Shown here in pieces: positions 3,622 to 61,839 of a DNA stretch of 64,000 nt. Positions within the stretch are counted from its first letter, which is position 1; every line of letters starts with the position of its first letter. The DNA is from Dissulfuribacterales bacterium (GTDB lineage Bacteria > Desulfobacterota > Dissulfuribacteria > Dissulfuribacterales > DYLC01). The position numbers were made by a program, and so were the translations under genes. Below the pieces are notes generated by a model. That model was not told the origin of the DNA and ran no database searches. It saw nothing but the letters and a program-made list of their open reading frames with translations. The DNA lies in NCBI GenBank assembly GCA_041287365.1, contig JBEULL010000018.1, forward strand, positions 240,908 through 304,907, given 5' to 3'.

Positions 3622-4191
3622 TTATTTCCCTAACTTCAAAAAATTATTCAAAAGTTTAAGGCCGTCTTGAGTCATGATGGATTCGGGATGAAATTGCACA
3701 CCCTCAATGAGAAATTCTCTATGCCTCATACCCATGAGCTCATCGTTTTCAGACCATGCACTGGCCTCAAGGCACGGAGGCAGGGAAGACTCCTCCACCA
3801 GCAAGGAATGATAGCGCATGGCCTCGAATGGATTGGGCATCTCTTTGAATACGCCCTTACCGTCATGCCGTATCATGGAGGTCTTGCCGTGCATGAGTCT
3901 GTCAGCCCGAATCACCCTGCCGCCAAAGGCAGCTCCAATGGATTGATGCCCCAAACACACTCCAAGAATGGGAATCTTTCCGGCAAAGTGCTGAATAGCG
4001 GCCACAGATATGCCGGCCTCATTGGGTGTACAAGGACCTGGCGATACGAGCAACCGGTCCGGGTTCAGAGAGATAACCTGTTCCAAGGTCAACTCGTCGT
4101 TTCTGATGACCTTCATATCGGCTCCAAGCATGCCCAGCATCTGTACGAGATTGTAGGTAAAAGAATCGTAATTATCGATTACTAACAACAT
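3622..4191 (-). CDS. trpG: anthranilate synthase component II (glutamine amidotransferase; TrpG/PabA type)
   Basis: 189-aa class-I GATase: [24 protein letters not shown] (catalytic Cys), FHPES. Lies between trpE and trpD. Confidence 0.85.
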
Positions 4192-4194
4192 TAT

Positions 4195-5685
4195 TTAATT
4201 TCCTTTATCAAGTATTTCATCCTGTGCTTTATCTATGGCCTTCATCAGGGCCTTGCCTTTGTTGATGGTCTCCTCCCATTCCTTTGTGGGATCTGAATCG
4301 GCGACTATCCCTGCTCCGGCCTGAAGATAGAGTTTATTTCCTTTCTGGCAGAGGGTGCGAATGGTGATGGCCATGTCCATATTGCCTGAAAAATCTAAGT
4401 ATCCCACGGCTCCGGCATAGGGGCCGCGTCTTGCGTGTTCCAGCTCTTCTATGATCTCCATGGCCCGAATCTTTGGTGCCCCGGATACGGTTCCAGCAGG
4501 GAAACATGCCTTCAGGACATGAAACATATCCAAACCATTCCGGAGTTCTCCTGTAACATTGGAAACTATGTGCATCACATGGGAATATCGCTCTATATGC
4601 ATGAGCTCGCTCACCTTCACTGTGCCGATCTTTGCCACACGGCCCACATCGTTTCTGGCCAGATCCACCAGCATGAGGTGTTCAGCCCTTTCTTTGGAAT
4701 CGGCCAGCAGTTCCTTTTCCAGCTGTTTGTCCTCAGCGTCGTCCCTTCCCCTTGGGCGTGTCCCTGCAATGGGCCGCAGCTCGATTTGTCTGTTAGTGAG
4801 CCTGACCAGTATCTCAGGGGAAGAACCTGCCATGGATTCATCGCCCATCTGAAAAAAATACAGATAAGGAGATGGGTTGATACACCTCAACGTCCTGTAT
4901 ATATTAAAAATAGGTATATGATTCCTACCGGAAAAACGCTGGGACAGCACTACCTGAATGATGTCTCCAGCGCGAATGTATTCCTTGGCCTTTTTGACAT
5001 TCGCTTCGAACACAGACTGTTCCACCTCAGGTGTGAGATAAGTCTTTTTTGTAACGGAATCAGAGGGATATGGGCAGCCCTGTAACAGACGCTCTCGAAC
5101 CTGCCTTACCTCTTCCACGGCCTTTTCATATATCTTATTTAACGGAGAGCCGTCGATTCGGGACCAGCAGATTATTTGAAGGGTATGCTTGATATTATCA
5201 TGGGCAAGCACCAATCGTGGCACCATGAATACACTGTCGTTGAAACCGGTGTTGTTTGTGAGACGTTCCGGCAACCGCTCTATGAAACGCACCATATCAT
5301 AACCAAGATACCCCACGGCCCCGCCTGAAAATCGAGGCGGCTCGGCCAGAGGTATGTGTGCCGGCTTGAACTGCGCCAGTATCCTCTGAAAATCCTTCAA
5401 GGGATCGGTGGAATCATGCCATTGCCTCTCCTCTCCAGCGTATTCCTGAAATACTTGTTTGCCTTTTGAACCAAAGACAAGAATGGGAGAAAGGCCGATA
5501 AAACTGTAACGTCCCCATTTTTCACCACCTTCAAGGCTTTCCAGCAGAAAGGAGTACGAACCTGACGCCACCTTGAGATAAATGGAGATGGGCGTATCCA
5601 TATCCACTGAAACTGTGTCGGTTACAGGCGCCAGATTGGCGTCATGAGCGACGGCCTCAAACTCTTGAAATGTCGTAAGCATCAT
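4195..5685 (-). CDS. trpE: anthranilate synthase component I
   Basis: 496-aa chorismate-binding enzyme: LLESxxGG-type motif (FLLESLEGGEKWGRYSF), GTVSGAPK, GPYAGAVGY, GAGIVADSDP. Confidence 0.9.
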   Translation of the reverse strand: MMLTTFQEFEAVAHDANLAPVTDTVSVDMDTPISIYLKVASGSYSFLLESLEGGEKWGRYSFIGLSPILVFGSKGKQVFQEYAGEERQWHDSTDPLKDFQRILAQFKPAHIPLAEPPRFSGGAVGYLGYDMVRFIERLPERLTNNTGFNDSVFMVPRLVLAHDNIKHTLQIICWSRIDGSPLNKIYEKAVEEVRQVRERLLQGCPYPSDSVTKKTYLTPEVEQSVFEANVKKAKEYIRAGDIIQVVLSQRFSGRNHIPIFNIYRTLRCINPSPYLYFFQMGDESMAGSSPEILVRLTNRQIELRPIAGTRPRGRDDAEDKQLEKELLADSKERAEHLMLVDLARNDVGRVAKIGTVKVSELMHIERYSHVMHIVSNVTGELRNGLDMFHVLKACFPAGTVSGAPKIRAMEIIEELEHARRGPYAGAVGYLDFSGNMDMAITIRTLCQKGNKLYLQAGAGIVADSDPTKEWEETINKGKALMKAIDKAQDEILDKGN

Positions 5686-5734
5686 GTGATTGTCTTTCAG
5701 AATCCCTTTGATTGAAATTAGAGCTCAATGTTCC

Positions 5735-5763
5735 TTGACATTATATCCAAAATCCCTTATTAA
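5735..5763 (+). promoter_or_regulatory. candidate sigma-70 promoter for tRNA-Gly
   Basis: TTGACA (5735-5740), a 17-nt spacer, then TATTAA (5758-5763). It ends 16 nt before the tRNA 5' end. Confidence 0.4.
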
Positions 5764-5768
5764 ATAAA
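5740..5768 (-). promoter_or_regulatory. candidate promoter for trpE, back-to-back with the tRNA promoter
   Basis: On the minus strand there is a perfect TATAAT (plus-strand ATTATA, 5740-5745) and a weak -35 TTTATT 17 nt upstream. It lies about 55 nt upstream of the trpE ATG. Confidence 0.35.
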
Positions 5769-5779
5769 AGGTTTTTTTT

Positions 5780-5855
5780 GCGGGCGTAGCTCAGCTGGTA
5801 GAGCACAAGCTTCCCAAGCTTGGGGTCGCGGGTTCGAACCCCGTCGCCCGCTCCA
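5780..5855 (+). tRNA. tRNA-Gly (anticodon CCC)
   Basis: Hand-folded cloverleaf. Acceptor GCGGGCG/CGCCCGC, D-arm GCTCAGCTGGTAGAGC, anticodon stem CAAGC/GCTTG with loop TTCCCAA, T-arm GCGGGTTCGAACCCCGT, discriminator U, encoded CCA. Length 76 nt. Confidence 0.9.
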
Positions 5856-6002
5856 GAAAAACGGCCTGTAATCACCCTATTTGAGGTTGGTCTTTTGTAT
5901 CATAGCCCATCGGCCTGGGCTTGGCCATTACTTCGATTAGTGGAGAAATGTATAGTGAATGAATTGTGAAAAATTCAAAAAAAATACACTCTCTGCTATT
6001 TG

Positions 6003-7797: not shown

Positions 7798-10700
7798 ATG
7801 AGTAAAATTCGGGTACATGAGTTGGCAAAGGAGTTTTCCATTGCTCCAAAAGAGATGGAGACATGGATTAAAAACCATGGCTATCCCATAAAAAATTACA
7901 GCAGCACGCTTGAGGACCATGAGGTCCAGGAAATAAGAATGAAATTTCGTGAAGAACGGGCCGTACAGTCTGCATCTTCGGCGGTTACAGGTGAAAATTC
8001 CGACTCCAAACGCCCGAATAAGACATCGGATAACACGGCTGACAACATATCCGCCAGGGCAACAACCGTCATCAGACGCCGCCCTGGCATCAGACTCACC
8101 AAGATCACTCACAACGATGAGACGACCACACAAGAACCATTGAAAGAGACCGCTTTCACAGGCCATGAAGAACAGGCTGAAATCACGGAAGAATCATTTA
8201 TTTCTGAAAGGCCGGAGGCCAGGCCTGCCGCCACAGGCGAACCGAGCCTAAAACATGTGCAGCCAGCGCCTCCCAAATCCTATGTAAAGGTCATTAAAAA
8301 AGAGACTCCGGTGGTTGCGCCTAAGAAGATTCCGTCTTCTGCGCCCCCTGAATCCACTGACAAAACCGTTGTGAGAGCCAAGGCGGAACCAGAGACAATC
8401 AAAATGCAACCTCCTCCAAAAAAAGAGGAGACCGTCAGACAGCCTGAAACATCCTCTGAAAAACCTTCTGATGTGCCTGTGACAAAGCCTGCTGTATCGG
8501 AAAAGACAGCAGGGCCGCAAGAGACGCTTGCCGGAACTATGTCGCCGGTCGAAGCGCATACGGCCGAAAAGACCGAGAGCAAGGAAGAGAAGAAACACCC
8601 TCTTCGAGAGGTTGTAATGGGCAAGCGTGAAAAAGGTCATGAAAGACATGAAACATCCCCTCAAAAAACCGCCCAGCAGCCCAAAAGTTATGTAAAAATA
8701 GTGGATAGACCACGTATCGTTCTGCCGCAACCCCAACTTCCTGCATCAAAACAGCAGCCAAAGCCCTCTTCGCACGGTGGAGCCGGGGCGCCCGGCGCTT
8801 ATTCAGGAAAAGGCCGTAGACCTGAAACACCACAGCCGGCCTCCTCCTTTCCTGACAGAACTGTGCCGCGCATTGACATGACGGTCCCAGTACTCGAACT
8901 GGATAAAAAGACCAAAAAGAAAGACATGTCCAAGCGGGTGGTACAGGTCTCCGAAATGGAAGAGGTTGCCAGGAGACGCAAGGCCGCAGCCAAAAAGATC
9001 GAAAAGCTCAAGCCGATAACCAAGTTGCTGTCCGAGGAACTGGACAGCGATTTAAATGTTACGGATGCCCTGCTGCCTGAAACATCCGTTTATGAAGCAG
9101 TCCTTGAGCCTGTTGTTTTCAAGACCGTACCAAGTAAGTCAGGAACCGGCAGAAAAAAAACAACCAGACCGATTTCCGCGCCTCAATCCGAAGCAGCTTC
9201 TGGGGCCTTCGATGCACAGGCCGGCAGAAGAAGGCTCATACTCAATGAGGCCATACAACTGGGTGACCTTGCTAAAAAAATGGGTGTAAAGATTGGAGAT
9301 GTCATCGGTAAGCTCATGGGCATGGGGGTTATGGCCACCATCAACCAAACCATAGATTATGACACTGCCGCGCTTCTCGCATCCGAGTTCAATTTCGAAG
9401 TGGAGAAACGCACTGTCGCAGAGGATATGTTGATGGAATTTGAACCTCAGGGTTCAGGCGAACAGGTATTGCGTCCGCCTGTGGTAACGGTCATGGGTCA
9501 CGTGGATCACGGTAAGACCTCACTTCTGGATGCGATTCGCGAGGCGGATGTGGTATCCAAAGAGGCCGGAGGCATCACTCAGCACATAGGCGCATATCAT
9601 GTAACCCTGTCATCCGGACACGATGTGGTCTTTCTGGACACACCAGGCCATGAGGCCTTTACAGCCATGAGGGCCAGGGGTGCTCAAGTAACCGATATCG
9701 TGATACTGGTAGTGGCGGCTGACGATGGGGTTATGGCCCAGACAAAAGAGGCCATCGACCACGCAAAGGCAGCGAAGGTGCCCATCATCGTGGCCATCAA
9801 CAAGATCGACAAACCCAACGCTAACATCGATCGCGTCAAAAGAGAGCTGGCGGAATACGGTCTTGTGCCGGAGGAATGGGGTGGAGACACCATATTCGTC
9901 AATATCTCTGCCAAAAAACGTATAGGCATAGAGGAATTTCTGGAGATGCTGGCTCTGCAATCCGAGGTGATGGAATTGAAAGCCGATCCCAACAGGCCTG
10001 CCAAGGGTCATGTGGTGGAGAGCAAGCTGGACAAGGGCCGAGGCCCTGTGGCAACCCTGCTCATATCCAACGGTACGCTTCGTGTGGGAGACAGCCTGGT
10101 CTGCGGCATGCACTATGGAAAGATTCGGGCCATGAACAACGACAAGGGATTGCCCATCAAGTCAGCAGGGCCATCCATACCAGTGGAGGTGCTAGGCCTC
10201 TCCGGAGTGCCTTCTGCCGGAGATGAATTCGTTGTGCTGCCTGACGAGAAAAAGGCGAGAGAGGTGGCGGAATACCGTCAGAGAAAACACCGTGAGGCAG
10301 AACTTGCCAAAGGTTTTCATAAAGTAAGTCTCGACAATGTCTTCGACCGTATAAAGGCCCAGGACATGAAGGAACTGAGTATCGTCCTGAAGACCGATGT
10401 CCAGGGCTCGGTTGAGGCCATATCGGACGCACTCAACAAGCTCAGCACACCGGATGTCACGCTGAAAATAGTTGCAAGCGGCATAGGCGCTATCTCCGAA
10501 TCGGATGTACTGTTGGCATCCGCCTCCAATGCCATAGTTATCGGTTTTAACGTGAAACCCAATCCGCAGGCCAGAAGTCTGGCGGAGCAGGAAAAGGTCG
10601 ACATACGTTTTTATGATGTCATCTTCAATCTCCTGGATGATATCAAAAACGCCATGACCGGCCTGCTCGAACCTGTGTTCAGGGAAAAGACCCTTGGCAG

Positions 10701-10986
10701 GGCACTGGTAAGGCAGGTTTTCATGGTACCCAAGGTAGGTGCTGTGGCCGGCTGCGCCGTAACCGATGGAGTGGTGCAGAGAAACTCCAAGGCTCGGCTT
10801 CTGCGGGACAATGTAGTGGTATATACGGGCAAGATTATCTCGTTACGCAGATTCAAGGAAGACGTCAAAGAGGTCGGTACCGGTTACGAATGCGGTATCG
10901 GGCTGGAACGTTTCAATGACATCAAAGAAGGCGATGTGATAGAGTCGTTTGTCATGGAAGAGACCAAACCCGTGCTTGCAAGCTGA
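7798..10986 (+). CDS. infB: translation initiation factor IF-2, with a long low-complexity N-terminal region
   Basis: 1062 aa. The GTPase core has [21 protein letters not shown] and NKID. The N-terminal ~480 aa are rich in P, K, E and T. Confidence 0.95.
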
Positions 10987-10993
10987 TTACAGG

Positions 10994-11308
10994 ATGTTTA
11001 CTGGAATATTGCGTATCACTTTGAGTTTACCTGAAAATCATTCGTTGAAGGAAAAACGCCGAGTGGTAAAGAGTATTTTACAGCAGATAAAAAACCGTTT
11101 CGAAGCCGCTGCATCGGAGACAGACCATCACGATTTATGGCAGACTGCTGAACTCGGGGTTGCAGTCGTGGGAAACAGTGCAAGCGTACTGGATTCGGTG
11201 CTGAATAAGATAATAGATTTTGTTGAAAGTATCGGTATCGCCGATCTTGTGAATGCAGAGATGGAAATCATCAACATGGGCAGACATGAAATTCGCAGCA
11301 ACAGATGA
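10994..11308 (+). CDS. DUF503 (YlxP-like) protein
   Basis: The small ORF starts MFTGILRITLSLPENHSLKEKRRVVKSI, typical of DUF503. It sits between infB and rbfA, like ylxP in Bacillus. Start set at ATG 10994, not the track start at 10949 that overlaps infB. Confidence 0.7.
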   Translation: MFTGILRITLSLPENHSLKEKRRVVKSILQQIKNRFEAAASETDHHDLWQTAELGVAVVGNSASVLDSVLNKIIDFVESIGIADLVNAEMEIINMGRHEIRSNR

Positions 11309-11343
11309 TGTGCTCATAAAAAATCATTTAGGTATATAATAAT

Positions 11344-11772
11344 ATGGCGCATAGATTCCCAAGGGCATACAGAATAGCGGATATGATCAAGAAGGAACTG
11401 GCATATCTGCTGCTTGGCGAGATAAAAGACCCTCGCATACACGGACTCGTTACTGTCATGAATGTAGAGGTATCCACCGATCTCAAGTATGCGAAGATAT
11501 TTGTGGCGGTCGCAGGCTCGAATCAGGACAAAAAAGAGGTGCTTAAAGGGTTCAAACAGGCCAAGGGCTTCATCAGAACCATGTTGGCCCATCGTATAGA
11601 GATGCGACAGATACCAGAATTGCATTTCTTGCTCGATACCACCCTTGAACGGCAGCTGCATCTGGAGGATGTTTTGGCGACCATTCCGCACTCATCCACT
11701 CTTGCGGAGGCCATTGAGACACCTCCTGATGAAACCAGTGCACCGAATCATATCGAAAATAACGGCAAATGA
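11344..11772 (+). CDS. rbfA: ribosome-binding factor A
   Basis: RbfA-like sequence (RIADMIKKELAYLL, DPRI, VEVSTDLKYAKIF, PELHFLLD) in a conserved operon position. Confidence 0.9.
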   Translation: MAHRFPRAYRIADMIKKELAYLLLGEIKDPRIHGLVTVMNVEVSTDLKYAKIFVAVAGSNQDKKEVLKGFKQAKGFIRTMLAHRIEMRQIPELHFLLDTTLERQLHLEDVLATIPHSSTLAEAIETPPDETSAPNHIENNGK

Positions 11773-37500: not shown

Positions 37501-38844
37501 ATGGAAGAGATTCGACTTGTACATATAGGTGACTGCCAAGTCACTAAAGACCCTGATACCATACTCGAGACATGTCTTGGCTCGTGTGTAGGCATAGCCA
37601 TATACGACGCAGTCAGGCGTGTCGGCGGCATGTGCCACATTCTGCTGCCTGATGGCCCTGCTGAAAAGAAACATGCCAATCCCACCGCCTATGCCACTAC
37701 AGCGGTTCCATTCCTGCTGAACGCCTTTGAAGAGCTGGGAGGCGAGAGAAAAACAGCCGTCACTGCCATTGCGGGCGGCGCATCCATAATGACAAAGCAT
37801 TCAGGCGCAGACCTCAAGATAGGTCAGCGGAATCTGCTCGCTGTAATGGAAGGCCTGAGACATGCAGGTATCAAGATTTCATATGAACACGTGGCAGGTA
37901 ATCTGGGGCGTGTGATGCGCCTGTATATGCGAAACGGCCAGATTCACGTTCGCACATCCAGAATGCCCACACCAGAAGAGGCAGGGAGGCAGATAAATGA
38001 AAAATGGAATGCCAACGCCTTGTGCGCCTCAATCCTGCAGGGCGCTGAAGACATCAGGCCCAGTTCCAATGTGGCCATTCGCGCCCTTCAACTCGCCAAT
38101 GGCGAGGACACCAGCATTATTGAACTGGAACAGCTCATTCTTCATGACCAGGTGCTGGCTGCCAACATACTCAAGGAGGCCAATTCCGCCTACTACGGAC
38201 TTTCCAGACAGGTACATACCATCTCTCAGGCCATCGCATACCTTGGCATGAGGACCTTCAAAAAAATAGTTATGGATACATGTCTTGCTGACATGTACGC
38301 CAGGTGTATAAATACCTATGATATGGAAGAAGGGGCGTTTTTCTATCACTCCGTTACATGTGCCCGCATAAGCGAGACTATAGCCAAAGTAACGGGTCGC
38401 GTGGAGCCGGAGACAGCGTATCTGGCCGGTCTGCTGCATGACATCGGCAAGATCGTGATCGAACGTTACGGTACAGATCTGTTCACACAGGTTACGAGCA
38501 GGGTGCTGTTGAAAAACGAATCCTTCGTGCAGGCCGAAAAAGACGTGTTCGGCCTGGACCATGCGGCCATAGGCCAGTATATCGCTCGAAACTGGCAACT
38601 TCCGATGGCACTGGAGGAGGCGATAGCATTTCATCATGAGCCCGAAAACATGAATGTAATCTCACCTCTTCCCTGTATAGTTCATATCGCTGACCACATC
38701 TGCAATATAGCCGGAATAGGACTTTCCAACGATTCCATGATCAACGGACTGAGCCAAAGGGCCATCACAGCCCTGGCCCTTGATGAAGGGGCGATAGAGG
38801 ACATCCTTTCCGCTGTCCCGCGCATAATCCATGCACACTCATAA
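37501..38844 (+). CDS. cheD: CheD (chemoreceptor glutamine deamidase) fused to a C-terminal HDOD domain
   Basis: Residues 1-~155 are CheD-like (VHIGDCQVTKDPDTILETCLGSCVGIAIYD, VGGMCHILLPDG, with catalytic Cys and His contexts). Residues ~190-447 are HDOD-like (LHDQVLAANILKEANSAYYG, AIAYLG, GLLHDIGKIVI, AFHHEP). Confidence 0.8.
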   Translation: MEEIRLVHIGDCQVTKDPDTILETCLGSCVGIAIYDAVRRVGGMCHILLPDGPAEKKHANPTAYATTAVPFLLNAFEELGGERKTAVTAIAGGASIMTKHSGADLKIGQRNLLAVMEGLRHAGIKISYEHVAGNLGRVMRLYMRNGQIHVRTSRMPTPEEAGRQINEKWNANALCASILQGAEDIRPSSNVAIRALQLANGEDTSIIELEQLILHDQVLAANILKEANSAYYGLSRQVHTISQAIAYLGMRTFKKIVMDTCLADMYARCINTYDMEEGAFFYHSVTCARISETIAKVTGRVEPETAYLAGLLHDIGKIVIERYGTDLFTQVTSRVLLKNESFVQAEKDVFGLDHAAIGQYIARNWQLPMALEEAIAFHHEPENMNVISPLPCIVHIADHICNIAGIGLSNDSMINGLSQRAITALALDEGAIEDILSAVPRIIHAHS

Positions 38845-52624: not shown

Positions 52625-54586
52625 ATGAAAAATCTACAACTCAGCACAAGATTCGCACTTATAACAGGTGGAATATGCGGTTTATTCTATCTATTATTCG
52701 TATTGTTGAGCTATAATTATTTAAAAGAACAAACCCTTCGCGTGGGATCAGAAAAGGCACATATCATTCTCGATATCATGAACGGCATCGATGCCTATAT
52801 CAATCAGACTCTAAGGCCAAAAATTATGAACCTGATGCCTGACATACAAGAAAATCCACATGCATTCATTCCGGAGATACTTTCCACCACTAAAATCAAA
52901 AACATAGTACTCGAAAAGGCTAAACTCGAAAATTTTCAATTCACATATAAAAGGATGTCTATAAATCCACGCAACAAGGATAATGGATTAAGTGAATTAT
53001 ATGCCGAAATACTGACAGTATTTCAAAAAAATCGAGAGATGAATGAATGGCAGGGCATAAAATCCATAGATAAACATAGATTTTTTATCCTTGCGAAACC
53101 GATCTATATAAAAGAAAATTGTTTAAGATGTCATGGCGATGCAAATCAAGCGCCTGTCGGACTTATTGCAAAATATGGAAGTGAAGCCGGATTCAGGTTC
53201 AAGACAAATGATTTGATGGGTCTGGAAGCGGTTTCCATTTCCATGGATGTAATATGGAATGAAATCATTCAGACAACCATAAATATCTGTACAATAGGCA
53301 TTATAATAATAGTTCTGTTGTTCATAGCTATTGAAGGTGGTTTTATCAGACTTGTAGGACATCCACTGAAAAAAATAGCCCAACACTTTACTAATATCAG
53401 TCAAAATATGTTGTTAGACACAGCAACCTTAAAAGTAAAGAAACATGATGAAATAGGCGAATTGATACAATCATTCAATCTAATGATAGAAAATCTCAAA
53501 CAAGCCTATGAAAACATCAAATCAAATGCAACAATTTTACAGACTATAATCAATGGAATAAGTGATCCACTTGCACTGATAGGGAAAGATTGCAATATGA
53601 TAGCCGCAAATAACACATATCAGGAATGGATATCCAAAAACAAAAAAATAGTGTTAAATACCATAGAAAAAGAACAACAAAATTGCAATTCAGAAACAAT
53701 AACATGCCAAAAAATCAAAAGACTATTAAACAATAAAGAAGAAATTATTGAAGAGTATAAAACAGAAAATGATGAATATTATTTAATACATTTATATCCA
53801 ATCAAAAACAACCAAAATGAAGTCATAAAAATAGTACATTATATTCAGGATATAACGAAACAAAAAAGATTGGAATTACAGATGGCACATGCTGAAAAAA
53901 TGGCAACAATCGGCCAGATGGCGGCAGGATTTGCTCATGAAATCAACAATCCATTGAGTATAATCCAGTGTTATACAAAATTATTGATCAAGAAATTTCT
54001 AAACGATCAGGAAACAATAAACGATCTCAAAATAATAGAGAAACATATCAATTCATCAAAAAATATAGTGGAAAATCTATTATATTTTTCAAGACACAAA
54101 AAAACAATTTACGAACAAATTAATATAAACAACATTATATTCGAAACCATTTCAATAACTAAAATACAATTCGAAAAGAAAAACATCATTATCACAAAAA
54201 GATTTCAAGAAAATCTTCCGATGATTTACGGCGACCGTGAAAAGCTGAAACAGGTGTTGCTCAACATTCTACTCAACGCGGAACAGGCCATCTCAAGTCA
54301 TGGCGAGATCACCATCACAACCGGTTTCGATGAAAACCGGAACGATGTGTATATCTCAATAAAAGACACTGGCTGCGGCATTTCAGCGCAGCACCTGAAT
54401 CATGTGTTCGAACCATTCTTCACCACAAAGCCACCCGGTGAAGGGACGGGGCTTGGACTTTTCGTGTCCTATGGTATCATTCGCGAACACAAGGGAGATA
54501 TCCTTCTAAAGAGCACAGAAGGTCAAGGGACGGAGATATTCATCACACTACCCGGCCTATTATATGAAAACCAAACTGACGTATGA
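52625..54586 (+). CDS. sensor histidine kinase with a periplasmic CxxCH (DUF3365/Tll0287-like, putative c-type haem) domain, HAMP, PAS, HisKA and HATPase
   Basis: TM1 at residues ~10-30, CLRCH at residues 166-170 (nt 53120-53134) and TM2 at ~215-240. HAMP-like (HDEIGELIQSFNLMIENL). H-box FAHEINNPL. N/G boxes LLLNAEQA, DTGCGI, GTGLGL. Confidence 0.85.
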   Translation: MKNLQLSTRFALITGGICGLFYLLFVLLSYNYLKEQTLRVGSEKAHIILDIMNGIDAYINQTLRPKIMNLMPDIQENPHAFIPEILSTTKIKNIVLEKAKLENFQFTYKRMSINPRNKDNGLSELYAEILTVFQKNREMNEWQGIKSIDKHRFFILAKPIYIKENCLRCHGDANQAPVGLIAKYGSEAGFRFKTNDLMGLEAVSISMDVIWNEIIQTTINICTIGIIIIVLLFIAIEGGFIRLVGHPLKKIAQHFTNISQNMLLDTATLKVKKHDEIGELIQSFNLMIENLKQAYENIKSNATILQTIINGISDPLALIGKDCNMIAANNTYQEWISKNKKIVLNTIEKEQQNCNSETITCQKIKRLLNNKEEIIEEYKTENDEYYLIHLYPIKNNQNEVIKIVHYIQDITKQKRLELQMAHAEKMATIGQMAAGFAHEINNPLSIIQCYTKLLIKKFLNDQETINDLKIIEKHINSSKNIVENLLYFSRHKKTIYEQININNIIFETISITKIQFEKKNIIITKRFQENLPMIYGDREKLKQVLLNILLNAEQAISSHGEITITTGFDENRNDVYISIKDTGCGISAQHLNHVFEPFFTTKPPGEGTGLGLFVSYGIIREHKGDILLKSTEGQGTEIFITLPGLLYENQTDV

Positions 54587-56007
54587 AACCAGAGCCAGTT
54601 ACTCCGCAAAAACTATTGATAATTGACGACGAACCGGACCTGTTGCTGGGTCTGAAGCGTCTGTTGCAGCCTTATTTCAGGCAGGTTCAGGTAATGACAG
54701 CCGAATCGCCTCACACCGCATTGGAACTCATTAAAAATGAGACCGTGAATGTAGTACTGAGCGATATTCGTATGCCAGGCATGGATGGAATGGCCCTGCT
54801 TCAAATGCTGAAGAAGAACGCAGCTCCTCCTACCGTAGTGCTCATGACCGCCTATGGCACCATAGATCTGGCCATCGATGCCTTAAAGCAGGGTGCCTAT
54901 GACTTTCTCACCAAACCATTGGACGAAGACAGGCTTGTTCACACTCTGCAAAAGGCCCTGGAGCGCCAGCAACTGCTGGAAAAGACCTCGCTTCTGGAAA
55001 AAGAGTTGCATCAAAGAAAAGGACTTGCCGATACATTCATCGGCACCAGCCCTGCCCTCAAGAAGGCTATAGATACCATCGCCCTTGCCGCCGGAACCGA
55101 TGTCCCTGTGCTCATAACCGGCGAAAGCGGCACAGGAAAAGAACTGGCTGCAAAGGCCCTGCATTCATGGAGTAACCGCAGCGCCCACGAATTTGTTGCC
55201 ATCAACTGCGCCGCCATGCCCGCAGAACTCCTGGAAAGCGAGCTCTTCGGTCACAAAAAAGGGGCATTCACTCATGCCATAGCCGATAAAAAGGGGCTTT
55301 TCGAACTTGCCGATAAGGGTACCCTCTTTCTCGATGAAATAGGAGATATGCCCCTTACGCTTCAAGCCAAACTACTGCGTGTGCTGCAAGAGGGAGAGAT
55401 TCGTCCCATTGGAGACAACCACACCAGAAAGGTGGATGTTCGAGTTATAGCTGCTACAAATAAACCCATCAAAACCATGTTGGAACGAGAGGAATTCCGG
55501 CAGGACCTCTTCTTCAGGCTCAATGTCATCGAGATACAGATGCCTCCATTGCGAGAGATGCGGGAAGACATTCCCATCCTGGCGCAACACTTTTTGCAAC
55601 AATTTTTGAAGGAAACCGGCATGCCTCCCAAAACCTTTTCAAGAGAGGCCCTGATTCAGCTTTCCACCTGGCATTGGCCTGGAAATGTCAGGGAACTTCA
55701 AAACTTGGTGAAACGGGCTGCCATTTTCAGCTCAGGTGACACGATTCTACCGGAAGACCTGCAGATTCCAGCCAAACGCGGCTGTGCCGGCGGAGACTTA
55801 AACGGCCTGGTGAACATGCAGTATCATGAGGCCAAAGAAACGGTCATGCGTACCTTCACAACGCAGTATCTCACTCAAATACTGAGGTCCACCAACTGCA
55901 ACATCACACTGGCCGCCAAGCGCTGCGGCCTCGAACGCCAGTCCCTGCAACAGCTCATTCGACGCTATGGAATCAGTGTGGACGAAATAAAAAACACTGC
56001 AAACTAA
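54583..56007 (+). CDS. sigma-54-dependent response regulator (NtrC family: REC, AAA+ and Fis-type HTH)
   Basis: REC (LLIIDDEPD...SDIRMPGMDG). AAA+ with GESGTGKE, the GAFTHA (GAFTGA-like) loop, and ELFGH. C-terminal HTH. ATGA-type 4-nt overlap with the kinase. Confidence 0.9.
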   Translation: MKPEPVTPQKLLIIDDEPDLLLGLKRLLQPYFRQVQVMTAESPHTALELIKNETVNVVLSDIRMPGMDGMALLQMLKKNAAPPTVVLMTAYGTIDLAIDALKQGAYDFLTKPLDEDRLVHTLQKALERQQLLEKTSLLEKELHQRKGLADTFIGTSPALKKAIDTIALAAGTDVPVLITGESGTGKELAAKALHSWSNRSAHEFVAINCAAMPAELLESELFGHKKGAFTHAIADKKGLFELADKGTLFLDEIGDMPLTLQAKLLRVLQEGEIRPIGDNHTRKVDVRVIAATNKPIKTMLEREEFRQDLFFRLNVIEIQMPPLREMREDIPILAQHFLQQFLKETGMPPKTFSREALIQLSTWHWPGNVRELQNLVKRAAIFSSGDTILPEDLQIPAKRGCAGGDLNGLVNMQYHEAKETVMRTFTTQYLTQILRSTNCNITLAAKRCGLERQSLQQLIRRYGISVDEIKNTAN

Positions 56008-56249: not shown

Positions 56250-56349
56250 GATTTCACTTCATTCCGGCGTTTTTTAAATAAATTTGACAAGATTTTTTTA
56301 CAAAACCATCACCTTTCATTATCGACACAACTGCACAGAGGAGGTTTCC

Positions 56350-58101
56350 ATGGCAGAAATCGAAGAAAAAAAGGGATTGATCAGTGAAGATTGGCTGTCC
56401 TTGATTCTGGGCCTCATCGTCTTTGTCCTCTCACTTGGAGTCTTTCAGAACATGGACATTCTTGGCTGGGGCGTCACAACAAAGATGTGGACGAATCCAG
56501 GAAAAATAAACGGTGTGGTCTCCAAGGTCTATCAGCCGCTCAAGGGTGAAATAACCAAGATAGACGGCAAGACCCTGGTCATCAAAAAATCCGATGGCAA
56601 GGAGGAAAAGGTAACGGTAGAAGACGTATCCCGCTATAAAGTGGGGGACAAGTATGAAAAAGACGGTATCTCCGGCAATACCGCCCTGTTTCTCACCTTT
56701 TTGGCCATGCTGGTCTTGATGGGCTTTGGCGCCCTGCTCTTGGGTGCAAACCTGTCTCGCTTTCTCATAGGCTTTACAGCAGTCTTCTGGATCAGCTATC
56801 TATGTTGGGTTTTGGGGCACTGGGCCTACATAGCAGCCACCAAGGCGGATCTCGCCAAGTTCAATATTCCATGGTCACTCAGCATGACCGGTGAGTTCGG
56901 CTTCATCATCGCCCTGGTTGCAGGCCTCATCATCGGCAATTTCGTGCCAAAATTGGCCGACTTTATGAAAGAGGCCGCGCGTCCAGAACTCTACATCAAG
57001 ACAGCCATCGTCATTATGGGCGCTACACTTGGACTCAAAGCCGCTCAATCCTTCGGTCTGGCCACCAACATCATGTTTCGCGGGCTTTGCGCCATAGTGG
57101 AGGCATATCTCATCTACTGGGCATTCACCTACTGGGTGGCCAGAAAATACTTCAAATTCAGCCGTGAATGGTCGGCGCCACTGGCCTCGGGCATCTCCAT
57201 CTGCGGAGTCTCGGCTGCCATAGCCACAGGCGGAGCCATTCGAGCCAGGCCTGTGGTACCCATCATGGTCTCTTCCCTGGTGGTTATCTTCGTGGCCATT
57301 GAAATGATCATCCTGCCGTTTATCGCTCAGGTCTTTCTTTGGAAAGAACCATTGGTGGCAGGCGCATGGATGGGTCTGGCAGTGAAATCCGACGGTGGTG
57401 CCATTGCAAGCGGCGCCATCGCAGACTCATTGATTCGTGCCAAGGCCATGGATATGACGGGCATCAACTATGCAGAGGGATGGATCACCATGACCGCAAC
57501 CACGGTCAAGATGTTCATCGACATCTTCATAGGCGTGTGGGCCTTTGTACTGGCCATCATCTGGTGCACCAAGATCGATTGCAAACCAGGCCAGAAGACC
57601 AGCGCCATTGAGATATGGAACCGCTTTCCCAAGTTCGTTATAGGCTATGTACTCACATTCTTCATTCTGCTCTTTATATGTTGGCCGGCAGCCAAGACAG
57701 TAGGTCCTACCACTGACCAGATGAACAAACTGAAGGTGGAGATACAGAGCATCGAAAAACAGGTGAGCGGCGCGGCGGCGGAGAACAAGGCAGCCCTTGA
57801 GGCCAAACTGACCGATGCCAAGGCCAAGATAAAAGATATGGAGGCCAGCATCAAGGAACCCAAAAAACTCCTTGATACAGCCAGGCTTTCCACAGAGGAA
57901 GGAGATACCTTCAGAAAGCTCTTCTTCCTGCTCTGCTTCTTCACCATCGGCCTGGTATCCAACTTCAAGAAGCTCATGGAGGAAGGCATCGGTAAACTGG
58001 CAGCTGTCTACGCCGTGTGCCTGTTCGGATTCATAATCTGGATCGCCCTGCTGATCTCCTGGCTCTTTTTCCACGGAGTGAAGCCGCCGGTAATAACCTG
58101 A
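56350..58101 (+). CDS. polytopic membrane protein, YeiH/UPF0324-like (putative sulfate-exporter family) with extra N-terminal soluble insert and C-terminal coiled-coil insert
   Basis: Many TM helices and an SGISICGVSAAIATGGA motif like the UPF0324 ICG-SA signature. Start at ATG 56350 (GGAGG 6 nt upstream), not TTG 56284. The family call is from memory of the motif only. Confidence 0.6.
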   Translation: MAEIEEKKGLISEDWLSLILGLIVFVLSLGVFQNMDILGWGVTTKMWTNPGKINGVVSKVYQPLKGEITKIDGKTLVIKKSDGKEEKVTVEDVSRYKVGDKYEKDGISGNTALFLTFLAMLVLMGFGALLLGANLSRFLIGFTAVFWISYLCWVLGHWAYIAATKADLAKFNIPWSLSMTGEFGFIIALVAGLIIGNFVPKLADFMKEAARPELYIKTAIVIMGATLGLKAAQSFGLATNIMFRGLCAIVEAYLIYWAFTYWVARKYFKFSREWSAPLASGISICGVSAAIATGGAIRARPVVPIMVSSLVVIFVAIEMIILPFIAQVFLWKEPLVAGAWMGLAVKSDGGAIASGAIADSLIRAKAMDMTGINYAEGWITMTATTVKMFIDIFIGVWAFVLAIIWCTKIDCKPGQKTSAIEIWNRFPKFVIGYVLTFFILLFICWPAAKTVGPTTDQMNKLKVEIQSIEKQVSGAAAENKAALEAKLTDAKAKIKDMEASIKEPKKLLDTARLSTEEGDTFRKLFFLLCFFTIGLVSNFKKLMEEGIGKLAAVYAVCLFGFIIWIALLISWLFFHGVKPPVIT

Positions 58102-58506: not shown

Positions 58507-60966
58507 TTACCTCACACCTTTTTCCGCCAGAAACGGCCCGTATTTTTTGTCTGTAATGCAGATATGGTTCTGCAGCCAGTTCTTGAGAAAATTCAGCAGC
58601 TCCAAATCCACTGTGGCGTAACCTTTCTCGAACTTCTCCTTGAAGGCAAGCACCTTTTGCACCAGGTCTGCGTGAATGGCCTTGTGGGCATCGGTGTCTG
58701 GATAGCCGTGCTTGTCGAAATAATCCTCTTCAGTCTTGAAATGAAAGACCGTGTATTCCGCCAGTTCATTCAAGACCTTGGCTGCGGCATCCTTTCCTAT
58801 GCCTTGCTTTATACCGGCATAAATGGTGTTCACCATGGCCACCAGCTTCTTGTGCTGTTCGTCTATGGAAGGAATGCCCACACTCAAATTCGGACTCCAC
58901 GGCATGAATTCAGCGGATTGTGAAGGGTTATGTAACTGCCTCTCCGCCTGCGGCTGTGCTGAAGATGTGCGCCTTCTTGAGGTGGGTTCGGCCTTCATAC
59001 CCTGTAATGCATGACCTCCTGCGCCTTCACTGCCATTTTTTGGGTCTTCAAGAATAGTCAACAATGAATGTAACAAAGAGATAGTCTGCTGGAAAAATGG
59101 GTCTATCTGGTTTTTGAAATAATCCAACATACGATCCCGTTCACCCGCCGCGATCATGCGCTGCAACTCCACAACATTGCGATGCATGGAGTCATGCACG
59201 GGCTGCAATTTCAATATTACATCCGCTATGCGAGAAGATGCAGGCTTATAACCGTCCAGAAAACGTCCAAGGCCACAGCGATGAGGATCGGTCTCCACCT
59301 CAAAGGGCACAAACTCGATCACGCCTGCAATTACCTTATCCCTCCACTGCATGTGCTGGTAAATAACGGCCTTTATACGGGCGCTGTCCGCCAGGCTTGC
59401 AAGCAATGAGGAAAGCAGACTCGGCTCCACTTTGATCTGAGACATCAACACAGCGGTCTCTGCTACAACGCTTTCCATACCATAGGCATTGGCCTCTATC
59501 TCCCTGCGCATTCTCGAGAAACGAGAGGCCTGTTCCAAAAGCACCTCAGAGTCCTTCATCACACTTCTGGCGCCTTCAGCGGCCCTTTCGATATTGTGTG
59601 TGATTTCAGAGACAGTGGCGGTCTGTTCCTCCGTAGCGCTGGCAATGGTGCTAGCCAGGTCATTCACCTCGCTTACAGCCTGTGTAATACGCTCCACTGA
59701 ATCCACTGCGTGCTGAGTATCGGCTTGTATCGTGGTGATCATACGGGTGATCTCCTCCGTGGCCCCTGCCGTCTGCTTGGCCAGTTCCTTCACCTCATTG
59801 GCCACTACCGCAAAACCCTTGCCTGCCTCACCTGCACGAGCGGCCTCGATGGTGGCATTCAGGGCCAAAAGATTGGTCTGAGATGCTATGTTGTTGATAA
59901 CTCGAATGATATCACCGATCTTTTCTGAACTTGTGGACAGGCTCTGAATAGCCGACTGCGCCTCGGCGGTCTGAGTCTGGGCGTCGTTGGCCTTCTGCGC
60001 TGTAATTGCCACGCTGTGCGCTATCTCATTGGTGGCGGTGGACATATCCTTGGTGGCCTGAGCGATGGTCTCGAGGTTGCTGGAGGAGGTCTGGGCCGAC
60101 TGCTTCACCTTATGAGAGACGGCCAGGATCTCATCCGCATATTGAATAAGCCGGTCTTTATTTTTATTGAGAATAGAGGCCACGCTCTCCACCACTGCAT
60201 TTTGGGCATTCATGGTGTTGAACTGTCCGATCATGGTGGAGGAAAGGGCGTTACACGCAGATGCAAGACGCTGCACCTCCGAAGGCCCTTCTACGGGCAG
60301 ACAGGTCTGAAACCTACCCTGACCTGCCTCCTGAATGGCGATCACTACCCTTTCCAGAGAGGCGATCATGAAACGCCTTACAAAAAAGGTGACCAAAATA
60401 ATGAAACATATACCACCTGCAAGAGTGACATACTGAAAATATTGGGCGTATCGGTCTTTTTGAAGAGAAGATGCCTCAAATGCCTTGGTCACTGCATCCG
60501 CCTGCTTAAAAAGGGTACCGTTGGTCTCGTTCATGGCTGAAACTGCCTTTTTTACATCTTCCGCATTTGGCTTTTCATTTAGAACAACAGCGATATGGGC
60601 TGAAAACGGCTTCCACAGCCCTTCCAGTTTATTGAGCTCGGAAAACAATGCCTCATCAGTCACAGCAGATAACCCCAGTTCTGAACTGCCGTTTTTGAGC
60701 CCTTGTAACGATTTTTCAAAGAGCTGCGAGGCATTCTTCAGTTCGTTCAGGTGTGAGGCATCGCCTGTTACCATGTAGGCATTGGCGGCCTTGGTCATCT
60801 TTTGAGAGAGCATGCGCTCACGGCCAGCTATGTTTATGGCTATGGTATCCGAGCCATGTAGATAAATGAGAAAAAAATTGAGGGAAACGGTGACAATAGT
60901 GGCCACAAACATGATGGCCACCAGGGCCGGGACCAGAAATGAAATAGAGTAAAAACGCCTGAGCAT
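58507..60966 (-). CDS. methyl-accepting chemotaxis protein with N-terminal PilJ/NarX-type sensor, HAMP, MA domain, CZB-like module and C-terminal hemerythrin domain
   Basis: [16 protein letters not shown] (nitrate/PilJ-type P-box), MA hairpin region ([37 protein letters not shown]). CZB-like H..W...[11 protein letters not shown]...HDSMH at nt 59053-59382. Hemerythrin-type ligand residues ([15 protein letters not shown]...H, WL.NHI..D) at nt 58510-58911. Confidence 0.9.
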
Positions 60967-61033
60967 TCACTTCCTCCTTACAAAAAAAGTCATTGACAGA
61001 TTTCTTTAATACGTATCATGACATTGCGCAATA

Positions 61034-61078
61034 GGAAAACCACACTGCCCCTATGGGGCACCCCTCTACAAGAAGGGG
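61034..61078 (-). terminator. candidate terminator after fliW (two adjacent short hairpins, then GGTTTT)
   Basis: The minus strand reads CCCCTTCTTGTAGAGGGG, then TGCCCCATAGGGGCA, then GTGTGGTTTT. The stems are short and the T-run is weak. Confidence 0.35.
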
Positions 61079-61605: not shown

Positions 61606-61839
61606 TCATTCCTCCTTTGTGGAAACGATGGCATCCAATGCCTGAATATCCGCTGGGGCATCGGCCGCCAATCTGTTCTGTTCCTGAATACGAAGATAAA
61701 TCTCGTGTCTCAAAATAGATGTATTGGATGGAGCGATTATTCCCAACTTCACCTGGTTGTTTCGAATCTCCAGCACCTTGATCTCTATGTCATCACCTAT
61801 GCAAATCTTTTCCTCTACCTTTCGTGTCAATATCAGCAT
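61606..61839 (-). CDS. csrA: carbon storage regulator CsrA (FliW-partnered type)
   Basis: [37 protein letters not shown]...ILRHEIY. Confidence 0.9.

Follow-up and report, generated by a model that had tools for sequence, protein, structure and literature searches.

Chemoreceptors that end in a cytoplasmic sensor module have been described in two kinds. In DcrH of Desulfovibrio vulgaris, a transmembrane methyl-accepting chemotaxis protein (MCP), the C-terminal bacteriohemerythrin (Hr) domain senses O2 or redox state and has an N-terminal loop that responds to redox (PMC9388753). In chemoreceptors of the other kind, a CZB domain serves as a sensor of redox state, O2, or Zn (PMC8262984; bioRxiv 10.64898/2026.07.03.735341). 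The C-terminal CZB domains of TlpD (Helicobacter pylori) and McpA (Salmonella) are demonstrated sensors (PMC8262984; bioRxiv 10.64898/2026.07.03.735341), and the "membrane-bound chemoreceptor with a C-terminal CZB" is one of seven CZB subgroups (PMC8262984). Here we describe a receptor that carries both modules in tandem, encoded in a 64,000-nucleotide stretch of DNA from a Dissulfuribacterales bacterium (GenBank assembly GCA_041287365.1, contig JBEULL010000018.1, positions 240,908 to 304,907), hereafter called the window.

Domain organization of the receptor

The receptor consists, in order, of a first transmembrane (TM) segment, a PilJ-type periplasmic domain, a second TM segment, a HAMP domain, the MCP signaling hairpin, CZB, a disordered linker of ~45 amino acids, and a bacteriohemerythrin (Table 1). 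A first-pass annotation made from the sequence had proposed a TM-sensor-TM-HAMP-MA layout that continues into CZB, a low-complexity linker, and a complete hemerythrin, and this structural reading proved right throughout when examined by Pfam, hydropathy, and motif searches, with HAMP falling below its cutoff. Hydropathy placed the two TM segments at about residues 4 to 38 and 176 to 205. The strong match to the MCP signaling domain makes the receptor an MCP, the PilJ domain lies between two clear hydrophobic segments, and a motif scan located the hairpin tip motif at about residues 365 to 382 and a methylation-like site at residue 442. HAMP domains in homologs of the receptor scored 24.2 to 25.1 bits.

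A divergent CZB domain follows the signaling hairpin

We interpret the middle module as a divergent but genuine CZB domain with predicted zinc binding, even though it scores below the Pfam cutoff, because its motif, its ligands, its profile match to DgcZ, its predicted fold, and its homologs all point to the same family. The published motif, Hxx[WFYL]x21-28Cx[LFMVI]Gx[WFLVI]x18-27HxxxH, is matched exactly by the receptor, and shuffling the protein 20,000 times never produced it. When 13 cassette sequences were aligned, with identities as low as 32%, the four ligands H538, C564, H591, and H595 were invariant, as were W541 and G567. A CZB-only family profile searched against the PDB returned the CZB domain of Escherichia coli DgcZ as its top hit (3T9O_A, E 7.6e-9; 4H54, E 3.4e-6), with the His, Cys, and HxxxH of the profile in register with the DgcZ ligands; a single-sequence phmmer search against the PDB did not find DgcZ, which was recovered by the family profile alone. 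A Foldseek search with an AlphaFold model of residues 519 to 819 gave 3T9O_B as the best non-Hr match (template-modeling score 0.69, 114 columns, probability 1.0), and the NCBIfam DgcZ equivalog model matches residues 530 to 639 of the receptor (E 9.3e-6).

Homologous segments in other family members, which are referred to below by the P numbers of their sequence clusters, exceed the Pfam CZB cutoff in P0019 (32.0 bits), P0021 (29.4), P0023 (38.1), P0024 (30.7), P0027 (40.9), P0031 (37.2), P0084 (57.6), and P0263 (31.3), while the receptor, P0017, P0018, P0020, and P0029 are below threshold. The first-pass annotation had staked its CZB assignment on a score against the CZB model. That score fell short of the Pfam gathering value, but the shortfall is overridden by the motif, ligand, profile, fold, and homolog evidence above. 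Its further claims that the His/Cys zinc ligands occur in the expected order, in residues that are indeed present and match the motif exactly, and that the segment spans nucleotides 59053 to 59382 (residues 529 to 638) were accurate.

The receptor shares with TlpD, McpA, and DgcZ (3T9O and 4H54) the same 3His/1Cys motif and helical bundle, which in the receptor follows the MCP domain; sequence identity to the CZB domain of DgcZ is about 18%. In TlpD and McpA, however, CZB is the terminal domain, whereas the receptor continues into a tether and a hemerythrin. Furthermore, TlpD and McpA are soluble proteins of host-associated bacteria, while the receptor is membrane bound and belongs to an environmental anaerobe.

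A tethered hemerythrin of the DcrH type forms the C terminus

The C-terminal module is, by its score, ligands, and predicted four-helix bundle, a bacteriohemerythrin of the DcrH-Hr type for which O2 binding is predicted. Besides its NCBIfam match (Table 1), it scored 64.2 bits against Pfam Hemerythrin (PF01814) at residues 698 to 813. All seven diiron ligands (H705, H742, E746, H761, H765, H801, and D806) are present and are invariant across the family in the 13-sequence alignment, in agreement with the earlier description of a complete 134-residue hemerythrin with a diiron pattern at nucleotides 58510 to 58911, which correspond to residues 686 to 819. The closest solved structure is DcrH-Hr (E 2e-22, 38 to 39% identity), and Foldseek aligned the domain with 3WAQ (DcrH-Hr) at a template-modeling score of 0.92 and a root mean square deviation of 1.4 Å. 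The residue after the last His ligand is Ile in both proteins (I802 in the receptor and Ile119, the site of the I119E and I119H mutants, in DcrH).

The linker that precedes the hemerythrin, annotated earlier as a low-complexity segment of ~47 residues, translates properly from its coordinates and is predicted by AlphaFold to be disordered. It is the least conserved part of the protein among orthologs. The number of amino acids separating the last CZB helix from the N-terminal "FMPW" loop of Hr varies within the family from about 5 (P0024, P0029, and P0084) to about 55.

DcrH (2AWC, 2AVK, and 2AWY) is likewise a transmembrane MCP from a Desulfobacterota-type anaerobe with a C-terminal bacteriohemerythrin. 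According to its literature description, on which this comparison rests, it consists of HAMP-MCP-Hr only (PMC9388753). In the receptor, by contrast, MCP and Hr are not joined directly, since CZB (about 115 residues) and the disordered linker of ~45 residues stand between them, and the periplasmic part is a PilJ-type domain with an N-box. The receptor is thus DcrH-like in its C-terminal Hr and belongs to a different architectural subclass.

The periplasmic domain resembles nitrate sensors

When searched against the PDB, the periplasmic domain matched PilJ from Pseudomonas aeruginosa (7ZJR, E 1.4e-9) and the ligand-binding domain of McpN (6GCV, E 8e-4). The N-box of the McpN type has the consensus [IVL]-[ND]-x-A-G-x-Q-R-M-L-[ST]-Q; its key ligand is Arg61, and further contacts are made by G58, A59, and M62 (PMC6381276). 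The receptor's near match keeps the key Arg (R51) as well as the Gly and Met contact positions, and the motif is identical in its orthologs; a perfect N-box (INVAGRQRMLTQ) is present in the family member P0021. Given these similarities, it is reasonable to propose that nitrate or a related oxyanion is probably the ligand of the periplasmic domain. The likeness to the P. aeruginosa nitrate chemoreceptor McpN and to the NarX/NarQ sensors lies in a single PilJ-type periplasmic bundle with a near N-box. Unlike the receptor, McpN is without cytoplasmic sensor modules.

The fusion is conserved and Hr is modular

Full-length orthologs were found in GTDB genomes of a Deltaproteobacteria metagenome-assembled genome (MAG; 81% identity) and an uncultured Desulfobulbaceae MAG (76%), and in both the modules and ligands are conserved while the linker alone has diverged. 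Pairs of family members that differ more in CZB also tend to differ more in Hr (Mantel r 0.68, p 0.018), which is consistent with the two having been inherited together. An assembly or frameshift artifact was ruled out as the source of the fusion, given one continuous open reading frame (ORF), the same layout in independent assemblies and cultured genomes, and conserved ligands. We conclude from these comparisons of sequence that the fusion is real and under selection.

The finished genome of Dissulfurimicrobium hydrothermale (CP085041.1) encodes two paralogs that differ in the presence of Hr. P0115 (WP_237888265.1; L005, positions 4001 to 5944) is a complete gene for a 647-amino-acid PilJ-MCP-CZB protein, whereas P0263 (WP_237888106.1; 834 amino acids) is PilJ-MCP-CZB-Hr with all domains above Pfam thresholds. 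Overall identity between the two is 89%, rising to about 100% over the stretch that starts at TM2 and finishes with CZB. Their periplasmic domains are different (an N-box in P0115, the degenerate ITLGERERVLSQ in P0263), and P0263 alone has the linker and Hr. No separate Hr gene that would make a split-gene version was found downstream of P0115, where the next gene encodes a PAS histidine kinase. Since these near-identical paralogs occur with and without it, Hr is best described as a modular C-terminal add-on to an MCP-CZB chassis, and the complete P0115 gene would imply that this chassis also works without Hr.

Over its full length, the receptor shares 55% identity with P0263, and P0263 has the complete PilJ-MCP-CZB-linker-Hr order of the receptor with a degenerate N-box. 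In Dissulfuribacter thermophilus (P0018, WP_067619882.1), the same CZB-linker-Hr cassette follows the MCP domain and is 47% identical over the cassette; the Pfam scan of P0018 gave no PilJ hit, and the regex did not find an N-box. Across the family, the N-terminal half that precedes the cassette is of at least five types: a PilJ domain that has an N-box, one that lacks it, a TM hairpin with no periplasmic domain, a soluble form, and a large ligand-binding domain.

The tandem architecture is recurrent and appears undescribed

We searched the C-terminal 300 residues of the receptor exhaustively with phmmer against 1.84 billion cluster representatives (50% identity) and classified the best 150 clusters by motif and Pfam. 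At least 11 of these have the C-terminal MCP-CZB-Hr tandem, and the top matches, P0017 to P0021, align in one unbroken stretch across CZB, linker, and Hr. The tandem comes from Desulfobulbaceae-like MAGs, Dissulfuribacter, Dissulfurimicrobium, Thermodesulfatator (atlanticus), Desulfomicrobiaceae, Desulfonauticus, and Magnetococcales; its cultured carriers include Dissulfuribacter thermophilus (WP_067619882.1) and Dissulfurimicrobium hydrothermale (WP_237888106.1). The rarity implied by the first-pass annotation therefore does not hold, as the tandem is spread over several lineages with cultured species included, and the MCP-CZB-Hr architecture can be regarded as recurrent rather than a one-off.

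Other arrangements of the same domains were recovered from the same 150 clusters. Six clusters are MCPs with a periplasmic CZB, between TM1 and TM2, and a C-terminal Hr (P0044, P0060, P0061, P0105, P0139, and P0143; about 700 to 719 amino acids, with a Pfam CZB score of 46 bits in P0044). In this family, CZB and the cytoplasmic Hr co-occur yet, by their predicted topology, cannot touch. One cluster (P0142, a 421-amino-acid protein from a Magnetococcales MAG) pairs CZB with Hr without an MCP domain, which would place the CZB-Hr pair outside chemoreceptors too; its CZB scored 59.5 bits, and the 170-residue region N-terminal to the pair has no Pfam match. The remaining counts were one cluster for MCP-CZB without Hr (P0115), two for MCP-Hr-Hr, and 41 for plain MCP-Hr. 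Chemoreceptors with tandem Hr domains at the C terminus (MCP-Hr-Hr) include P0025 (Pseudodesulfovibrio piezophilus WP_015416071.1), P0041, and P0028, and 42 of the 150 clusters are multi-Hr proteins without MCP.

Several candidates were discarded on inspection. Most of the two-stretch matches of the exhaustive search are tandem hemerythrins rather than CZB plus Hr, and P0006, P0008, and P0015 (518 amino acids, 88% query coverage) have no CZB, their coverage being a coiled-coil alignment. A word-index homolog search returned MCP-Hr and single-domain Hr proteins only and missed 73%-identical relatives; its apparent absence of the tandem is unreliable and was given no weight.

The earlier statement that no described receptor combines CZB and hemerythrin in tandem holds in our literature search. 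No description of the MCP-CZB-Hr tandem was found in the searchable literature of about 8 million papers, with subscription-only papers and figure content outside its reach. A census of 10,140 CZB sequences recognizes seven architecture subgroups, none with hemerythrin (PMC8262984). Dissulfuribacter, Thermodesulfatator, and hemerythrin were not found in the supplementary text of that census, a weak negative given that the two files may be incomplete. A hemerythrin survey names MCP-Hr and HAMP-MCP-Hr as the commonest fusions, and CZB is absent from its text (PMC4919030). In a review of hemerythrin sensors from 2022, DcrH is the sole MCP example and its signaling mechanism is stated to be unknown (PMC9388753). 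Only two papers name both CZB and hemerythrin, a cyclic di-GMP sensory review and a Campylobacter CheO paper, and they mention the two domains separately, not as a tandem. Altogether, the tandem appears to be undescribed though present in public databases, where its members are labeled generically as "bacteriohemerythrin" or "methyl-accepting chemotaxis protein." The receptor is a variant of two known kinds, the CZB chemoreceptors and the DcrH-type hemerythrin chemoreceptors, undescribed but not rare.

Proposed mechanism and alternatives

We consider it likely that the receptor is a functional transmembrane MCP in which three sensor modules feed one kinase-control hairpin. At its dimer interface, the PilJ bundle would bind nitrate or a similar oxyanion, with the signal passing through TM2 and HAMP. 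The MCP hairpin would run down from HAMP to its tip (about residue 379) and then back up, and since CZB is fused directly to the returning C-terminal coiled-coil helix, it would lie close to HAMP, at the membrane-proximal end. Judging from TlpD, McpA, and DgcZ, two factors would determine the zinc occupancy of CZB, namely, the labile Zn2+ pool and the oxidation of Cys564; the same analogy suggests that the Zn-bound domain is ordered and that zinc loss, through either a drop in labile Zn2+ under oxidizing conditions or oxidation of the Cys ligand, would disorder the bundle and alter control of the CheA kinase. In Hr, on its flexible tether of ~45 residues, O2 would turn the deoxy (FeII-FeII) site into its oxy/met form, which would, again by analogy with DcrH, order the Hr N-terminal loop. 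The module would add a direct O2/redox input. What our data show are the domain identities, the conserved ligands, the disordered tether, the modular Hr, and the recurrent cassette; metal binding, the identity of the ligands, the sign of each response, and the choice between parallel and through-CZB signaling by Hr are inferred. Integration of an external ligand with Zn/oxidant and O2 signals, as the first-pass annotation put it, is a reasonable interpretation. The combined inputs would position a Desulfobulbaceae-like anaerobe relative to electron acceptors and oxidants at the oxic-anoxic interface. Since sulfide governs labile Zn2+ in sulfidic habitats, CZB could there report the sulfide/oxidant balance.

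Some of our observations weigh against this reading. The HAMP score of the receptor is marginal (23.2 bits versus a cutoff of 25), and the CZB segment scored 24.2 bits against Pfam CZB (PF13682), below the gathering score of 29.4 (E 4.5e-5, residues 538 to 600, 62 of 64 model positions). The periplasmic motif departs from the strict N-box, as the consensus Gln is Glu in the receptor and the fourth McpN contact, A59, is Arg49, at the variable x position of the motif. Given this inexact match, the periplasmic ligand could be another anion, or there could be none. Furthermore, the route by which a C-terminal Hr signals to an MCP domain is unknown even for DcrH (PMC9388753). AlphaFold models, which were monomers built from shallow alignments (residues 519 to 819 for the receptor), were confident for the domains and not for the CZB-Hr orientation, with predicted template-modeling (pTM) scores of 0.47 for the receptor and 0.52 for the short-linker homolog P0024. 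These values allow no orientation, so a defined CZB-Hr interface was dropped, and the models lend no structural support to any specific coupling route. The predicted 45-residue disordered tether, in turn, argues against rigid mechanical transmission from Hr.

It is in the coupling of Hr to the hairpin that the main alternative arises. Hr could act in series, on CZB rather than directly on the MCP domain, with CZB as the single transducer. Such series coupling is, in our judgment, unlikely, and we are similarly doubtful that the CZB-tether-Hr cassette is a two-metal relay, working via released peroxide or state-dependent docking, rather than two independent sensors. In a mechanical version, redox-dependent ordering of the Hr N-terminal loop would pull on the last CZB helix. 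The short spacers of some members, in which Hr starts only about 5 to 10 residues past that helix, favor series coupling. Linker length is not conserved across the family, which is awkward for the mechanical version, and the long disordered tether of the receptor speaks against any version that depends on contact, as does the absence of a confidently predicted CZB-Hr interface at the pTM scores given above. In a chemical version, for which a flexible tether would suffice, autoxidation of Hr in O2 would release H2O2 or superoxide by the Cys564-Zn thiolate, leading to sulfenylation and zinc release; Hr would then be an O2-to-oxidant converter that widens the specificity of CZB to O2. Bacterial sensor hemerythrins autoxidize within about a minute (PMC9388753), and CZB passes zinc occupancy through its terminal helices and has an oxidant-reactive Cys (PMC8262984). 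It has been argued, however, that at physiological oxidant levels CZB responds mostly to labile Zn2+ rather than to direct oxidation of its Cys (bioRxiv 10.64898/2026.07.03.735341). The order of domains also favors a relay, as CZB lies between MCP and Hr in all 11 tandem clusters, never in the reverse order, and the pair occurs without MCP in the Magnetococcales protein P0142, but the family with a periplasmic CZB and a cytoplasmic Hr indicates that co-occurrence needs no contact. If true, the relay would be the first mechanism for signaling from a C-terminal hemerythrin to a chemoreceptor, a problem open since the description of DcrH in 2000; it would also explain the constant interposition of CZB and provide a transducer for an O2 signal that CZB senses poorly alone.

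We find it improbable that CZB is merely a structural, zinc-stapled dimerization or spacer bundle, with hemerythrin as the sole cytoplasmic sensor and the receptor a DcrH-type protein with an adaptor. The clade of the receptor is divergent and below the Pfam threshold for CZB (the receptor, P0017, P0018, P0020, and P0029), and plain MCP-Hr proteins are far commoner (41 of the best 150 clusters), so Hr can work with an MCP minus CZB. Nevertheless, none of the four ligands varies even between deeply diverged sequences, and this set includes the reactive Cys and is more than a structural His/Cys set; complete PilJ-MCP-CZB genes without Hr (P0115) suggest that CZB works on the chassis without Hr, and the C-terminal CZB domains of TlpD and McpA are sensors in their own right. 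Least credible, and in our view very improbable, is a tethered Hr that protects or buffers, by O2/oxidant scavenging or iron storage, so that the CZB thiolate or the receptor array stays reduced: single-domain hemerythrins shield O2-labile Fe-S enzymes in Campylobacter (PMC4257069), and a long floppy tether with no predicted interface would suit a nonallosteric role, but one stoichiometric diiron site per receptor offers negligible scavenging capacity, MCP-Hr is the most frequent hemerythrin fusion architecture (PMC4919030), sensor hemerythrins regulate partner domains in diguanylate cyclase and HD-GYP fusions (PMC9388753), and among solved structures the nearest relative is the sensor domain of DcrH.

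Genomic context

The same-strand upstream neighbors of the receptor gene encode FliW, CsrA, FlgL-like, and FlgK-like proteins, so that all four members of the flagellar fliW-csrA-flgL-flgK block noted earlier beside the gene are found there. The flgK-flgL-csrA-fliW block also lies upstream of the receptor at the ortholog locus of the Deltaproteobacteria MAG (81% identity). A terminator-like hairpin separates fliW from the receptor gene (Table 1) and weakly suggests that the receptor has its own promoter; the number of terminator-like sites in the consensus scan did not exceed shuffle expectation, making this weak evidence. The promoter scan at the receptor gene gave a single weak sigma-70-like site, below shuffle expectation, and was uninformative.

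Table 1. Features of the receptor gene and its product in the window
Feature	Residues	Window position	Strand	Basis
Receptor gene, complete	1-819	58507..60966	-	ORF list; 819 codons plus stop, single uninterrupted ORF
Shine-Dalgarno sequence AAGGAGG, strong		60973..60979	-	Read from sequence; 6 nt 5' of ATG
GC hairpin and T-run, terminator-like, between fliW and receptor gene		61046..61060	-	Consensus scan
TM1	about 8-36	60859..60945	-	Kyte-Doolittle windows >1.6 starting at residues 4-20
PilJ-type four-helix-bundle ligand-binding domain	37-175	60442..60858	-	Pfam PilJ PF13675, 57.3 bits at residues 39-138
N-box-like motif	44-55	60802..60837	-	Regex; 11/12 positions of McpN nitrate-binding consensus
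TM2	about 176-198	60373..60441	-	Hydropathy
Probable HAMP	195-237	60256..60384	-	Pfam 23.2 bits, cutoff 25; expected place after TM2
MCP signaling core	320-465	59572..60009	-	Pfam MCPsignal PF00015, 126.6 bits, cutoff 34.6
CZB helical bundle	527-640	59047..59388	-	AlphaFold (AF2) helices, predicted local distance difference test (pLDDT) 88-97; Foldseek; family profile
Zinc-ligand motif HMQW..x22..CGLGRF..x21..HDSMH	538-595	59182..59355	-	H538, C564, H591, H595 (3His/1Cys)
Disordered low-complexity tether	641-685	58912..59046	-	pLDDT <50 at residues 646-683
C-terminal bacteriohemerythrin	686-819	58510..58911	-	NCBIfam NF033749, 150.8 bits, cutoff 84

Within the flagellar block, the longest ORF for fliW shares 56 nucleotides with the end of csrA (window positions 61606 to 61661, minus strand), and csrA and fliW also overlap at an ortholog locus (L001). 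Since the FliW Pfam match begins only at residue 38 of this ORF, translation of fliW probably begins at an internal Met (MKLETM...). On the plus strand, positions 56284 to 58101 encode a 605-amino-acid Cons_hypoth698 (YeiH-like) membrane protein with a charged, coiled-coil-like insertion near its C-terminal third. At L001, a 608-amino-acid ORF of about this size, a resemblance by length alone, adjoins the receptor gene (positions 9694 to 11520, minus strand). Positions 52625 to 56007 (plus strand) hold a histidine kinase with a Tll0287-like sensor domain, HAMP, and PAS, which overlaps a sigma-54-dependent response regulator by 4 nucleotides; the two are probably a two-component pair. A 478-amino-acid ORF near the receptor at L001 has about the size of this regulator, again by length alone. 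Further away, positions 37501 to 38844 (plus strand) encode a 447-amino-acid protein in which a CheD domain (chemoreceptor deamidase/CheC partner) is fused to HDOD and HD, a chemotaxis-related fusion of unusual kind.

Significance

One polypeptide here joins two open signaling problems, that is, how a C-terminal hemerythrin of the DcrH kind and how a C-terminal CZB each signal to an MCP domain. Natural controls exist within the family, namely, the D. hydrothermale paralogs with and without Hr, linkers of about 5 to 55 residues, and the sister family with a periplasmic CZB, and they make parallel versus series coupling directly testable. Current annotation hides such multisensor receptors behind "bacteriohemerythrin" labels, and CZB frequently fails to reach the Pfam threshold. 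The cassette occurs chiefly in sulfate reducers, sulfur disproportionators, and magnetotactic microaerophiles. Since these carriers live on steep O2/sulfide/nitrate gradients, it is plausible that the cassette is a dedicated interface-finding device.

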